NCBI GenBank assembly: GCA_964629655.1 | Contig: CAZVQU010000001.1 | Location: 228,056 to 292,055, forward strand | Direction of reading: 5' to 3' | DNA from: an uncultured Planctomycetia bacterium | GTDB lineage: Bacteria > Omnitrophota > Gorgyraeia > Duberdicusellales > 4484-171 | Length of the DNA: 64,000 bases | Part shown: piece by piece, positions 3,001 through 9,000 of the stretch | Numbering within the stretch: position 1 is the stretch's first letter | Layout: each line of letters begins with the position of its first letter | Position numbers: made by a program

Positions 3001-6000
3001 TTTAGGGTCATAGCCGAGTAAAGAAAGATTCGCTACATCACTAGAAGGAGTAAACCCCCGGGGAATAGTCTTAACTCTGCCCAAGACTCCCTGCTTAGCT
3101 AAAGAATCCATAAAAGGCGTCTCTGCCACTTCTAGAGGGGTTTTGCCTCCCAAGATATCAAGGGGGTAATCAGCTACACCATCGGGTATAATCACGATAT
3201 ATTGCATAAACAAAAGTTTAATACAAAGAATATCTACTTGCAAGATATTTTTATAGTGATATATTTTATACTATGATAAAGCAAGGAGACCTCATTTTCC
3301 TCTATAATGACGATAAAAGGAACTTCCTGATTAAGGCTGAAGACAAAACCCTACACACAGACAAGGGTTTTTTAAAAGTTGGCTCTCTTATTGGGAGAAA
3401 ATTTGGCGAAAAAGTGGAAACAAATCTGGGAATTGGCTTCTATGTTCTACGCCCCTACCTCTATGAGCTAATAATGAAAGTCAGGAGAAAAACCCAAATT
3501 CTATACCCTAAGGATATTGGGATGATTCTTACCCGAGGCAATATCTTCCCGGGAGCAAAAGTAATTGAATCTGGTATCGGAAGTGGTGCGCTAACTACAG
3601 CTTTAGCTAATTTTGTAAGACCTAGCGGTCGTGTCTACAGTTATGAGAGAAATGAAGAATTCTTAAACAATGCTAAGAAGAATTTAGAAAAAAATGGTTT
3701 AAGCGAATGGGTTGAATTTAAACATCAAGAAATCACTGATGAGTTCGATGAAAAAGAAGCTGATTTTATAATGATAGATATCGGAAGCCCTTGGGATATG
3801 ATCGATGCCGCTTATAAATCACTAAAGGGAGGCTGCCGGCTTGCTACGATATGCCCTACCTTTGAACAACTTACCCAGACTGTATTTACACTAGAAGATA
3901 AAGGATTCATAAATATTGAAACAATGGAAATTCTCGTACGAAGGATTCTGGTAAGAAGAGGAAAAACTCGGCCGGAGCAAAGAATGCCTTCTCACACTGG
4001 CTGGTTAGTTTTTGCAACAAAGGTATATTCCTAAAATAGCTCTGAGCCTACCCTATATCTAATTCGCCCAACATATTAAGCTCTTCGATAAGGCTATCAA
4101 TGTCGGCTTCTTCTCCAAATTCCTGGATTAGCTCAAGATCATCAAGCACATCTTTCGACTCACCCACAACTCTAGTTTGAGCCAGGATAGTTTTGTCTAA
4201 ATCCTCTATCGCCTGAAAAATTTCTTCTGCATCACCCTCAAGAAAGATTTCTTCTGTGTCTTGGCCGATGGCTTCAAGCAGAGCCACTTCTTGATTTATT
4301 AAACTAACCGGACCAACCTTACCTTGTTGCATAAATATAAAAGCAAAGATCACAACACAAGCAGTAACCAAAACCGGTACAAGCTTGGAGGAGAAAATGG
4401 AACCAAGGTTCTCTATCAATTCTAACCCTTTTTCTCTCAAAGAATTAGCCAATACTTCCTTCTCTTCTTTATTAATCTTCGCATAAACTTGATCAGTATA
4501 ATTGTTCAAAATACCCTCAGGAACCTTTTTTAACTTCTGTTCCTTAACCAATTCAAGGGCCTTCTTAAGACCTTCTACTTCGGAAAAACAACTTTCGCAA
4601 ATAGAGAGGTGTTTCTTAATCTCCTTTAACTTTTGCTGGCTAAGCTCACCATAACAGTAAGCCAAGAGATCCGCGCCTTTAAAATTACATTTTTTCATTT
4701 TACGCCTCCAGGAATATTTAGGTTAATATATCCTTCCAGCTTAGCTTGTAAATTTACTGTTGCTTTAAATAAATTAGCTTTTACAGTTCCTAAGGCAGAA
4801 TTGGTAATCTCAGCTGTTTCGGCCAAAGTTAGCCCATGAATATTCTTAAGTGTAAATACTATTCTCTGCTTTTCGGGCAGCGAGCTTATTGCCTTTGTTA
4901 AGTGCGCTCCTAACTCTTTGTCTAGTAATTGCTGCCCAGGACCGGGAGCCTTAGAAGCAACACTCTCAAAAATATCCTCGGGTTTAACCAAGCCATCTTT
5001 TAGTTTAAATTTGACAGAGAGCTTAATAAACTTATTGCTCTTTCTGCGCCTGAGATAATCTTTGCAGATGTTAACCAATATACGATAAAACCAAGTGTAA
5101 AACTTTGATTGGGCTCTGAACCTCTTGATTGCCTTAAAAGCCTTAATAAATGCCTCTTGGGAAAGATCTTTTGCGTCTTCATAGTTAGCACAAAAGGAAT
5201 AAGCCACACTCAAGGCTTTCTTCTTATATCTTTCCACTAATTGACAAAAAGCTCTTGAGTCGCCAGCTTTCACCTGAGCGATTATTTCGCTTTCATTATA
5301 TGCCAGCATCTATAAAGTCCTTATTTTCTTCTACCTCCGCCTTTTTTCCCACCGCCTCTTTTATTACCGCCGGCTCTTTTACCTCTGGATTTCTTTGCGC
5401 CGGACTTTCCTCTTTCTTGCTTTGATTTAGAACGCTTGCCTTTCTTATACTTTTGCCCAGCTCCAGGTCCACCCTTTGGTCCCGGAGGATTGCCTTTCTT
5501 ATACTTTGACCCAGCTCCCGGTCCGCCTTTTGGTCCCGGAGGATTGCCTTTTAAATGTTTTCTCCTGCCTCCGGAGTCTTCCCGCCTATCTCTTCGATCC
5601 TCCCTACGATCTCTTACGTCTTCACGCCTGTCATGCTTATCTTCTCTGCGATCCCGAACATCCTCGCGTCTGTCTCGAACATCTTCCCGCTTATCAGCGG
5701 CAATATTCTTCCTTAAACCACGGATTTTCTTATCCAAAGCTTTTACCTTCTTTCTATCACCAGCCTCTACAGCCTGAGAACGTGCATCCTGTAAATTGCT
5801 CATCCTATCAGCTTTAATTGCATCATCCTTGCGATCTCGAACGTCCTCTCTTCTATCCCTAACATCTTCTCTCCTATCATAGAAATCCTCTCGGCGATCC
5901 CTTCTGTCCTCGCGCCTATCCCAAACATCTTCAGTACGATCTGCTAACCCAGGATGTTTCTTTAGAACTTGCTCATACTTCTCAGGATCAGTCTTCTTTA

Positions 6001-9000
6001 AACGCTGGAGTCGTCTATCTTGATTAGCTTTTCTTTTCTGCATAATCTCCTTAAACTTCTCAGGATTCTTCTCTTTAATTTTACTTAATCGGCCTTCTAA
6101 AGCACTTCTTTTTTCCTCTACCACTTGCTGAAATTTTTCCGGGTCTGTACGCTTTAGGTGTTCGAGCTTCTTCCTCTGGTCAACCCGTCTCTGCTTCATG
6201 AGGGCTTGAAACTTCTCCGGGTCATTCTCCTTTAAGTAGTCAAGCTTCTTTTTGAGCTTGTTTTTGCGGTTTTGCATAATCTCCTTAAACTTCTCAGGTT
6301 GTCTTTGTTTCATCCTTTTTAATCTTTCAAACTCGGCTTTCTTAGCTACCCCTGGCGGTGTTCTTTGAGCATCGCTATAGTCTTCTTCCTCGTAGTAAGC
6401 TGAATCCTCATACTCTTCTGCCCGAACATTGCCGGAGTTAAAGAATAGGGTCAAAATAATCAATGCCACACTTACTTTTTCTATTCCTATGCCTTTCATC
6501 TTAAACCTCCTTGCTTCCTACATGAATGGTTAATATTTTCGCCCTCCACTTATTTAGACGAAAAAACCATTAAAAGGTTTACCCATTTTTCCTATTATTT
6601 CACTAATATACAAATACCGGCCCAAAGGCTAATCATTCCTTATTAAATTTGCTCAAATCAAACTTCGGTATAGATTCATAAGTAGGTATTTTACTTCTGG
6701 CAAAGTAGGGATAATCTAAGAATAGTTTCTCCCACAAGGTACCTCTCTTAGGACCACAAATTCCTCTTTGGGAAGAAAGGACAGAAACAATCATTTCCTT
6801 TACTGCCGGAGAATTTAGCTTCCCTAACTCCTCCAAAGCACTTTTAAGAGGTATTTCTTTGCGGTAAAGGATCTTATAGGCTTTTCGAATTTGGTTTATT
6901 TCCTCCTTACTAAAATTTGCTCTCTTTAACCCTACTAAATTAAGGCCCCAGACTCGGGAATCACCCACTACCATCATAAAGGGAAGAACATCTTGGTTGA
7001 CTCGAGATAATCCTCCGATCATTGCTAATCTACCAATTTTAACGAATTGATGAATAACTACATTTCCTGAGATAAAGGCTTTATCGCTTATTTCAATATG
7101 GCCAGCAATTAAAGCCCCATTGCAGATAACTACATTATTAGCTATCTTACAATCATGAGCAATGTGGGAACAAGCCATAAGAAAATTGCCGTCTCCTAGA
7201 GAAGTTGCCTTATCTGGAGAACTTGAACAATTAATCGTGACATACTCTCGGATAACATTGCCTTTCCCGATGTAAACCTTCCCCTTTGCACCTTTTACGT
7301 CTAAACTCTGGGGGGCTTCGCCAATAACACTCCCGCTACCAATAAAAGTACTATCGCCAACATAAGTATTAGCTCTTAAGTGTGCAAAGGCAGATATCTT
7401 TACTCCTTTACCCAAATGCACACCGCTTTCTAAATAAACGTAGGGACCGATGCTTACATCGTCTCCTAAAACTACACCCTTTTCGATAACTGCTTGGGGA
7501 TGAATCACTCTAGCCCTCCCTTCTTACAACGGTAACTTTACCAACCAATGAAATAAACTCCAACCGCAAAGGCATTTTTTCCTCCTTATCCAACCAGAGG
7601 CTAAACCTCTTCGCACCTCTTCCAATAAGAAAGTATGTATCCTGGTCAACACCATTCACTTTCAAGACTCGTTCTTTCACCATTTTTATTTTTATTTTTT
7701 GAGTAGGCAAATTAAAAGTTATCCACTTACCTGCCTCCAAAGACACATCCTGGGGGAAAAAATAAAGAAGCTCTAAAATATTATGTATCGGGGTATCCTG
7801 TCTAAGAACGTCTTCAGGCTTTCCAGAACCGCTTCTTTTTATTTTAATTTGCCCTCTCGCTTGATCATAAGTCTCCTCTATAATCTCTTTCTTACCAAAA
7901 AAAACAATATCTCTCTCTACCTTTACTGGAAGAGAAGTTTTGCTATCAAGAAAAACTTTTTCCTTACTGTCTAGATCCAAAAGATTAAAAATATCTGTGT
8001 CTGAATTTACCGAAAGAACATCTACGGTTATCCCGCCTATTTCCTGACGCCCGAGATATTCCCACTCTATATACCCCGAGGGAATTCCATTAAAATAGAC
8101 GCTATAGACTAACTTATCTTTGTTTTGAAACCGAGCCTCTATACCCTTTACAGAGACAGCTCCTTCGCCAGCTACGCTACCGGTTATTAAGAATGCTATT
8201 CCGACTATAATGGTGACAATACTAAACGCTCTCATCTTACTTCTTTTCAAGACTAAAGAGATACTAGATTTTTAATTTCTTCTATTTTTTCTTGAGCTGC
8301 TAGCTCTCCTCTCCTAACAAACGCAGATATTTTTTCAAATTCCATCCATCCCAGGCCTTCTAGGTTAGTATGGATAACTACATCAGCAATCTTTACTGCC
8401 TCTTCGACGAATCTCTGCTGCATTGTTTCAATACTCCCAAAGATAAAATCAAAGATATGAAAACGATCACGTTTACGATATTCCCTGCGGGCTTGTTCAG
8501 AAGAAAGACTAATATTAGAAGCAATTATCTTATGAGCATCATAATTTAAGAGTACTTTTGTCGGTAGGGGGCTCAAAATCCCTCCATCCAAGAGAATACT
8601 CTTCTTAAAATTTATAGGTTCAAATATACCGGGAAAAGCACAACTAGCTGCTACAGCCTTGTAGAGAAGGCCTTTACTCAATACCATCGGTTTTCTTTTA
8701 AGAAAATCAAAGGCAACTATCTTCAGGGTATGCTTCAAATCATAGAATGTTAAATTCTTAAATACACCCTTAAAAATATTTTCCAGCCTTCTCGCTCTCA
8801 TAAGCCCTTTAAAGGGGAACGTAAATCCTAAAATAGAAAACTTACCAATTTTTCTTCCGAATTCATTAGAAGCTTTTTCTATTTCTTCTATACTAAAACC
8901 TATTGCCCAAAGAGTCGCAATAATCGCTCCTGTGCTTGAGCCACAGATAATATCAATATCTATATTATTTTTTTCTAAAACTTTTAGGACACCAACATGA

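Follow-up and report, generated by a model that had tools for sequence, protein, structure and literature searches.

A highly charged, probably secreted repeat protein encoded at the head of a conserved ECF sigma/anti-sigma operon

The 64,000-nucleotide (nt) stretch of Omnitrophota DNA analyzed here, which we call the window, carries on its minus strand a compact operon that encodes, in order, a highly charged and probably exported repeat protein, a sigma factor of the extracytoplasmic function (ECF) type, and an anti-sigma factor. The conserved order of these genes, the clade formed by the linked sigma factors, and the position of the promoter show that the repeat protein belongs functionally to the ECF system. 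What does it do there? We tentatively favor a reading, which we consider close to but not quite an even call, in which the operon is autoregulated and its first product regulates the anti-sigma factor by direct, largely electrostatic binding of its repeats (the PEKF module) to the acidic extracytoplasmic domain (ectodomain) of that protein; we infer both the binding and the direction of the feedback.

The operon consists of three co-directional open reading frames (ORFs), exactly at the coordinates and in the order that a preliminary description of this DNA had given. Its principal features, with lengths in amino acids (aa), are:

6554..6581, minus strand: ECF-type promoter motif TAAACCTTTTAATGGTTTTTTCGTCTAA, about 55 nt upstream of the first ATG, conserved across loci
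6506..6512, minus strand: Shine-Dalgarno sequence AAGGAGG, 6 nt 5' of the repeat-protein ATG, read directly from the sequence
5321..6499, minus strand: gene for the modular, highly charged, predicted secreted repeat protein, 392 aa (ORF and composition)
4695..5309, minus strand: ECF (group 4) sigma-70 factor gene, 204 aa (Pfam, TIGR02937, aligned orthologues, clade analysis)
4048..4698, minus strand: anti-sigma factor gene, 216 aa (ORF, Pfam/NCBIfam; 23 homologues)

The preliminary description had spoken of 4-nt gene overlaps, and one exists, between the sigma stop codon and the anti-sigma ATG; it is the sole overlap in the operon, however, as the stop codon of the repeat gene lies 11 nt before the sigma ATG. 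The unit comprises three genes, since it is bounded downstream by a convergent gene (3273-4034) and upstream by one for an LpxA-like acyltransferase. Scans for terminators and sigma-70 promoters found nothing above chance within the operon, and a search of 3900-6800 against Rfam brought up no RNA family. The ORFs on the plus strand at 5436-5817 mirror the repeat region and were disregarded.

Co-conservation of the repeat protein with the sigma/anti-sigma pair, which the preliminary description had proposed as a test, is borne out by gene order, sigma phylogeny, and a common promoter. In 12 of the 14 loci with readable context (the window, L001, L005, L009, L012, L013, L014, L017, L084, L101, L105, and L106; L010 and L011 lie outside this count because their contigs end), an ECF sigma gene comes immediately after a PEKF-repeat gene, and a single-pass anti-sigma-like protein follows the sigma wherever the contig reaches. 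L105 and L106 were looked up after the hypothesis had been formed, and both fit. In a neighbor-joining tree of 86 sigma factors, 8 of the 9 PEKF-linked sequences included form one clade that contains no unlinked member. Among the 80 best metagenomic sigma relatives, which mostly belong to other ECF subclades and serve as a comparison set rather than as relatives, the repeat protein occurs only in L016, L017, and L084, that is, with the two closest sigma relatives and in L084. The homologue P0017, which shares only the charged RED heptads described below, is not sigma-linked.

One of the conserved loci merits a remark of its own. L012 (JAIWAR010000008.1) is labelled as part of a 'Methanosarcinales archaeon' metagenome-assembled genome, yet it encodes LpxA and shows complete synteny to the window (patatin-like, DUF3108, LpxA-like, PEKF protein, sigma, anti-sigma, Gcd14-like, apgM); the contig is bacterial and was binned wrongly.

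The promoter motif combines a -35-like GTAAACC with a -10-like CGTCTAA in AAAC-N16-CGTC spacing. The pattern GTAAACCTTT-N-CGTCTAA recurs upstream of the first gene in L001, L005, L010, L011, L012, L014, L017, L101, L105, and L106, and a variant stands in the same place in L009, the sigma factors of the motif-bearing L005, L009, and L014 being only 35-43% identical to that of the window. The motif occurs once in the window, with 0 occurrences expected from shuffles. Across 614 kb of loci the strict pattern has 18 matches, all of them on the sigma-coding strand and, where inspected, just upstream of the first operon gene. It was not found upstream of the sigma-unlinked homologues L002 and L003, and the minus strand of the intergenic region upstream of the repeat gene holds no sigma-70-type site. 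Autoregulation and co-encoding with regulators are usual for ECFs, whose grouping and predicted signalling mechanisms rely on conserved neighbors and promoters (PMC7826278). By computation, the pattern matches the expectation for an autoregulated ECF operon (AAC-type -35, CGT-type -10), and the autoregulated promoter that had been suggested upstream of 6499 can be placed at the predicted motif at 6554-6581. L010 contains two tandem PEKF-repeat genes (L010:4932-6259; P0024 and one cut by the contig end), each with its own TAAACCTTT...CGTCTA motif, so that one kind of sigma appears to target these paralogues separately.

The middle protein is, by its domain matches, an ECF (group 4) sigma with regions 2 and 4 only, as had been claimed: in Pfam, Sigma70_r2 reaches 72.8 bits, r4_2 46 bits, and Sigma70_ECF 33.1 bits, and TIGR02937 scores 111 bits against a cut-off of 42.9. 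The third protein looks like a class I (ZAS-type) anti-sigma factor, with the following parts:

4519..4698, minus strand: predicted cytoplasmic anti-sigma domain, residues 1-60, with H30-x3-C34-x2-C37 (zf-HC2 match, invariant residues)
4324..4386, minus strand: predicted single transmembrane segment, residues ~105-125 (hydropathy scan)
4051..4323, minus strand: predicted extracytoplasmic domain, acidic, residues 126-216, 91-92 aa, net charge -22 (sequence, alignment)

Its designation as a zinc-finger protein is partly sustained. H30, C34, and C37 are invariant in an alignment of 13 anti-sigma homologues, and the homologue P0120 bears a precomputed PF13490 annotation, but the window protein's own match to zf-HC2 (PF13490) reaches 21.6 bits (E=2.3e-4), just below the Pfam cut-off of 22.2. 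AlphaFold2 (AF2) models this N-terminal domain as helices, with a predicted local distance difference test score (pLDDT) of 73-86. The HxxxCxxC motif is missing from the distant anti-sigmas L009:2955-3395, L105:4851-5423, and L106:1435-1824, which keep the transmembrane segment and the acidic C-terminal domain; the zinc finger is thus not a constant feature of the module. The ectodomain is as strongly acidic as first described, and its acidic and hydrophobic positions, E180, E193, E196, E197, D199, and E212 among them, are conserved among the 13 homologues.

The first protein is both highly charged and strongly basic, again in agreement with the preliminary description: 51% of its 392 residues are charged, for a net charge of +50. 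It is built from distinct modules:

6419..6499, minus strand: signal-peptide-like N-terminus, residues 1-27, MKGIGIEKVSVALIILTLFFNSGNVRA (sequence features)
6359..6418, minus strand: acidic, Tyr-rich N-terminus of the predicted mature protein, residues 28-47, net -8, conserved in close orthologues
5945..6358, minus strand: PEKF module, residues 48-185, net +23 (repeats in the sequence, AF2 helices)
5831..5935, minus strand: RED heptad arm 1, residues 189-223, five R-E-D-x-x-D-R heptads, within AF2 helix 183-246
5690..5830, minus strand: linker/turn of the predicted RED hairpin, residues 224-270, KDDAIKADR...VEAGDRKK...RKNIAADK (AF2 break 247-248)
5564..5689, minus strand: RED heptad arm 2, residues 271-312, six heptads, the last degenerate, within AF2 helix 249-309
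5432..5545, minus strand: duplicated NPPGPKGGPGAG-xKYKKG block, residues 319-356, detected by Tandem Repeats Finder (TRF)
5324..5431, minus strand: K/R/G-rich basic C-terminal tail ending GGGRRK, residues 357-392, 36 aa (sequence)

Sec-type export is suggested by the N-terminal features, a basic n-region, a 12-residue hydrophobic core, and V-R-A before EE (...NVRA-EE), and the homologues have N-termini of the same kind. The PEKF module comprises four full and one truncated 26-residue helical repeats of the form [DN]PEKFxxhhxxRxxxhxxxLxxLKxx, with [DNQ]PEK[FY] five times at an exact spacing of 26 residues (67, 93, 119, 145, and 171) and a mean pairwise identity of 38%. In the AF2 model, whose mean pLDDT is 74.7, these repeats form 25-residue helices with a one-residue break at each DPEK and a pLDDT of about 90 or higher. 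Five repeats had been described as LTXXQ-like: the five DPEKF-type repeats stand, but the likeness to LTXXQ finds no support in any search.

The RED heptads number 11, in blocks of five and six with one hydrophobic residue per heptad, rather than the roughly 14 first counted. They were considered as a possible single alpha-helix (ER/K) or coiled-coil domain; AF2 places them in two helices (183-246 and 249-309, pLDDT >90), and the two-residue break at 247-248 suggests that these may fold back as an antiparallel hairpin; the same type of linker is found in L013, P0006, P0007, P0009, P0011, P0012, and P0017. From residue 312 on the model predicts disorder, with a pLDDT below 50 in the C-terminal tail. 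The duplication of the Pro/Gly block is real: TRF resolves it as a tandem array with a period of 54 nt (2.1 copies, 91% matches), and its NPPGPKGGPGAG-xKYKKG motif is also repeated in P0091, P0025, and L016. A collagen-like character, as first proposed, can be ruled out for it, since Gly is irregularly spaced in GNPPGPKGGPGAG with no continuous G-X-Y register, and the repeat protein has no collagen match in Pfam. The K/G/R tail noted earlier is confirmed in the last 36 residues, and many family members have comparable G/R/K termini.

Two further observations concern the borders of these modules. A conserved Gly-rich terminus, GVRDHGxGxGRGxGQGGxHRSPRSQG...GGGRR, is shared by P0015, P0028, P0030, P0129, P0147, P0161, P0188, and L084:3-1475, so that the basic tail of those proteins is more than low complexity; the window protein has NPPGPKGGPGAG blocks where they have this motif. 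A segment of about 20 residues, PPGYDKGKKVGWRGAD, lies between the acidic stretch and the PEKF module in P0001-4, L012, L017, and L101, and is absent from the window protein (6340-6360, around residue 47/48).

Which of these parts is the core of the family? A search with the full repeat protein gave 102 homologue matches, many of which have only the RED heptads in common with it, sometimes together with EF-hand motifs. Searched by itself against 1.84 billion proteins, the PEKF module hit 232 cluster representatives with E<=1e-3, of which 89 had E<=1e-10. Nearly all representatives inspected are 130-400 aa long, most with hydrophobic N-termini and a net positive charge, and the source names, where given, indicate Omnitrophota, with Planctomycetota in some cases. 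The protein collection searched does not contain the exact 392-aa sequence, but identical 392-aa repeat-protein genes are called in L098-L100. The closest homologues, P0001-4 (~60% identity), have the PEKF module, the tail, and, except for P0004, the Pro/Gly block, and carry no RED heptads; the syntenic orthologue in L101 ends after 2.5 heptads, the L012 protein consists of seven PEKF repeats with nothing beyond, the L013 protein has 17 heptads, and in L084 RED blocks flank the PEKF module on both sides. No sigma-linked homologue lacks the PEKF module, provided that its N-terminal part falls within the contig. These comparisons make it probable that three modules, RED hairpin, Pro/Gly blocks, and basic tail, are optional additions that vary between orthologues. 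In the secreted proteins P0007, P0009, P0011, P0012, and P0053, RED hairpins co-occur with EF-hand calcium-binding motifs, and the extra first gene of the L105 operon (L105:2822-3499) carries a DTNQDGKLSRKELE motif; both observations hint at a link between the charged modules and divalent cations. A literature search on the peptide motifs and on Omnitrophota ECFs returned nothing relevant, and the literature we found describes neither the accessory family nor its repeat architecture nor its placement as the first gene of the operon.

Our preference for regulation by binding comes from the joint occurrence of the PEKF module and the acidic ectodomain, against a background of other modules that vary. 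The ectodomain has a median charge per residue of -0.28 where the locus is PEKF-linked (n=7) and of -0.06 where a related locus lacks that link (n=42), and in the distant L005 and L009 less basic repeat proteins (+7 and +9) pair with less acidic ectodomains (-12 and -11). In the scheme that we propose, the sigma would recognize TAAACC-N16-CGTCTAA (6554-6581) and transcribe the repeat protein, the sigma, and the anti-sigma as one unit. The repeat protein would be exported via its Sec-type signal peptide, and in the periplasm its basic PEKF module (+23) would act on the anti-sigma through the latter's acidic ectodomain (-22), which is probably disordered in part. Being made from the sigma's own promoter, the repeat protein could then feed back on signalling in one of two ways: it may stabilize the anti-sigma, a negative feedback like that of CpxP on CpxA or RseB on RseA, or an envelope polyanion or damage may titrate it away and so release the system. 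The periplasmic partner or modulator of the anti-sigma that the preliminary description had imagined is therefore, in view of co-conservation, promoter, and charge, the best-supported reading, although homology to Spy/CpxP is rejected below.

A more specific version seems to us unlikely but worth stating. The PEKF protein and the acidic ectodomain might constitute an undescribed, electrostatically matched periplasmic sensor pair, in which a disordered ectodomain folds onto the basic repeats and competing polyions break the complex. Polyamines, cationic peptides, divalent cations, lipopolysaccharide (LPS), polyphosphate, or ionic strength could act as disruptors and lead to anti-sigma proteolysis. 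If true, this would be a new input mechanism for ECFs, working through a family that is absent from Pfam and apparently largely confined to Omnitrophota-like bacteria.

Several observations weigh against regulation by binding. P0013 and P0028, with only two PEKF repeats each, have no adjacent sigma; the neighbor-joining tree is without bootstrap support, and the L014 sigma falls outside the PEKF-linked clade. The p value for the difference in ectodomain charge (Mann-Whitney p=4e-5) makes the evidence look stronger than it is, as the loci are phylogenetically non-independent, and charge complementarity is in itself weak evidence for binding. AF2 gives the ectodomain low-confidence helices (pLDDT ~30-40), and we infer the export of the repeat protein from sequence features. 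In sister sigma subclades the first gene encodes a quite different secreted protein (L021, L029, L024, and L040), which fits a variable regulon cargo as well as it fits a modulator.

If the first gene is such cargo, the repeat protein would be the main effector of the sigma regulon rather than a regulator, with no feedback on the anti-sigma. It might be a polycation of the periplasm or the cell surface, produced during envelope stress, that coats or neutralizes LPS phosphates, polyphosphate, or extracellular DNA, or serves as a scaffold. We regard this as a serious possibility, if on the doubtful side, and hold its detailed form in the same regard. It would account for the place of the gene immediately behind a sigma-dependent promoter, for the extreme positive charge and the K/R/G tail, and for the free swapping of C-terminal modules (no RED heptads in P0001-4, 2.5 in L101, 11 in the window, and 17 in L013), a pattern that diversifying pressure on an effector would be expected to produce. 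The unrelated secreted proteins that occupy the same slot in sister subclades, preceded in L021 and L029 by the same promoter motif, speak for it too, as do the tandem PEKF genes of L010 with a promoter motif each. It leaves unexplained, however, why the partner ectodomains are so strongly acidic and why the PEKF module is retained in all sigma-linked members whose N-terminus is visible. Effector and regulator are, moreover, compatible roles, since CpxP, itself part of the regulon, also acts as an inhibitor (PMC6737893). That the adjacency is incidental, the first gene being a fast-evolving, low-complexity secreted protein with no functional tie to its neighbors, strikes us as highly improbable. 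Low-complexity composition does inflate homology scores, many of the 102 matches have only RED heptads, and two homologues are unlinked to a sigma; yet the gene order is kept in 12 loci over sigma identities of 35-78%, the promoter lies upstream of the first gene and not of the sigma, just 11 nt separate the two genes in the window, and the linked sigmas form an exclusive clade, L014 excepted.

The proteins that occupy the first position in other subclades include two recurrent types. In a neighboring sigma subclade a secreted protein of about 130 aa is encoded upstream (L024:1291-1713, L026:4448-4861, L041:15-419), with 'DRKEIR'-type charged heptads in two blocks, like the RED hairpin alone, and no Pfam match. 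In another subclade the upstream gene encodes a secreted protein with LPPGLAKRG / LPPGLQKK repeats (L040:250-873, L071:1199-1651, L048:4340-4792, L073:57-233), with which one may compare the start of the window's PEKF module, PPGVAKK (PPGLAKK in orthologues).

Could the repeat protein instead be a divergent member of the Spy/CpxP/ZraP (LTXXQ) superfamily, as the preliminary description had proposed? We reject this homology at the sequence level while keeping the functional analogy, and see very little chance of a hidden relationship. The general properties are those of the superfamily (small, basic, all-helical, periplasmic), the helix-capping motif L..LK..DPEKF loosely recalls L.LT..Q, and a true LTXXQ protein is encoded upstream of a related sigma in L051. 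Against this, the HMM searches were consistently negative. The repeat protein has no significant match in Pfam or NCBIfam, and neither LTXXQ (PF07813) nor Metal_resist (PF13801) matches it at E<=1; the same holds up to E=10 for the window protein together with 10 homologues, 11 family members in all, and neither is among the 25 most-matched Pfam families of 62 further family representatives. A PEKF-module profile searched against all PDB sequences at E<=10 retrieved no Spy, CpxP, or ZraP chain, hhalign gave probabilities of 0.09% against E. coli CpxP and 0.05% against E. coli Spy (sequences from NC_000913.3), Foldseek found no match at E<1 in the PDB, and the literal LTXXQ motif is not present in the protein. 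Spy folds as a four-helix cradle, which the 26-residue tandem-repeat architecture does not appear to resemble. As a positive control, the L051 protein scores 40.1 bits for LTXXQ and 40.8 bits for Metal_resist, above both cut-offs, so the Pfam model works in this setting. The L051 protein itself (L051:394-1074) is a genuine LTXXQ/Metal_resist (Spy/CpxP/ZraP-type) secreted protein, encoded directly upstream of a sigma 39% identical to that of the window.

Other weak resemblances were considered and discarded. S15, DUF3135, XPC-binding, and ApoLp-III are not homologues; their likeness is that of a helix corner or an amphipathic helix at the level of a motif, below cut-off where listed. The PEKF module finds its top PDB profile match (E=0.002) in ribosomal protein S15, at the C-terminal helix corner, which fits the L..L(K/R)..DPE(K/R)(F/Y)..hh motif of the repeat protein, but the match covers only ~20-55 residues, lies below the Pfam cut-off, and concerns a cytoplasmic, RNA-binding protein. 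The window's own S15 gene (22272-22559, minus strand) likewise has a C-terminal corner that weakly matches the PEKF profile (E=9e-4), a resemblance that explains the S15 matches in the Pfam and PDB searches. The S15 match says only that each DPEK marks a helix-helix corner.

The locus defines a compact module of promoter, probably secreted basic repeat protein, sigma, and acidic anti-sigma that is conserved among a small set of uncultivated bacteria, with an accessory protein family that is uncharacterized and has no Pfam model. If the repeat protein is a modulator, the module would make envelope sensing in an uncultivated phylum accessible to tests; if the protein serves only as cargo, it would be a clean example of modular repeat-protein evolution under one promoter.

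How does this module compare with known systems? Systems of this kind, in which a periplasmic accessory protein is encoded together with an ECF sigma and its anti-sigma, are known. In CnrX-CnrY-CnrH of Cupriavidus metallidurans, the anti-sigma works together with a helical periplasmic protein whose gene lies upstream of that for an ECF sigma. The window operon resembles this arrangement, and that of L051, in having the gene for a predicted helical periplasmic protein upstream of an ECF sigma; the LTXXQ protein gene of L051 occupies the same slot, directly upstream of the sigma, as the window's repeat gene, a parallel that favors a regulatory role. The window protein differs in failing the LTXXQ and Metal_resist tests, in its tandem-repeat architecture, and in having no His-rich or other metal-site motif that we could see. 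RseB is not known as a charged helical repeat protein, and it shows no similarity to the window protein in any search; it is encoded after the anti-sigma, whereas the repeat gene comes first. The likeness to the RseB/RseA/sigma-E system lies in an accessory periplasmic protein of the sigma operon that binds the anti-sigma and damps the response (PMC6737893).

CpxP of the CpxP/CpxA system offers the closest precedent in behavior: a small, basic, helical periplasmic inhibitor of its own sensor that is among the most highly induced products of the system it inhibits, and that is thought to act on the periplasmic domain of the sensor and to be titrated away under stress (PMC6737893). On paper the window operon is similar, with a product made from the sigma's own promoter and partners of opposite charge. 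The differences are that the two proteins share no detectable sequence or profile similarity, that the window's transducer is an ECF anti-sigma and not a histidine kinase, that the window gene is predicted to be co-transcribed ahead of the sigma rather than divergent, and that its product consists of 26-residue tandem repeats with RED, Pro/Gly, and basic-tail modules. If the repeat protein is indeed a modulator, it would represent an independent, non-homologous reinvention of CpxP/RseB-type feedback.

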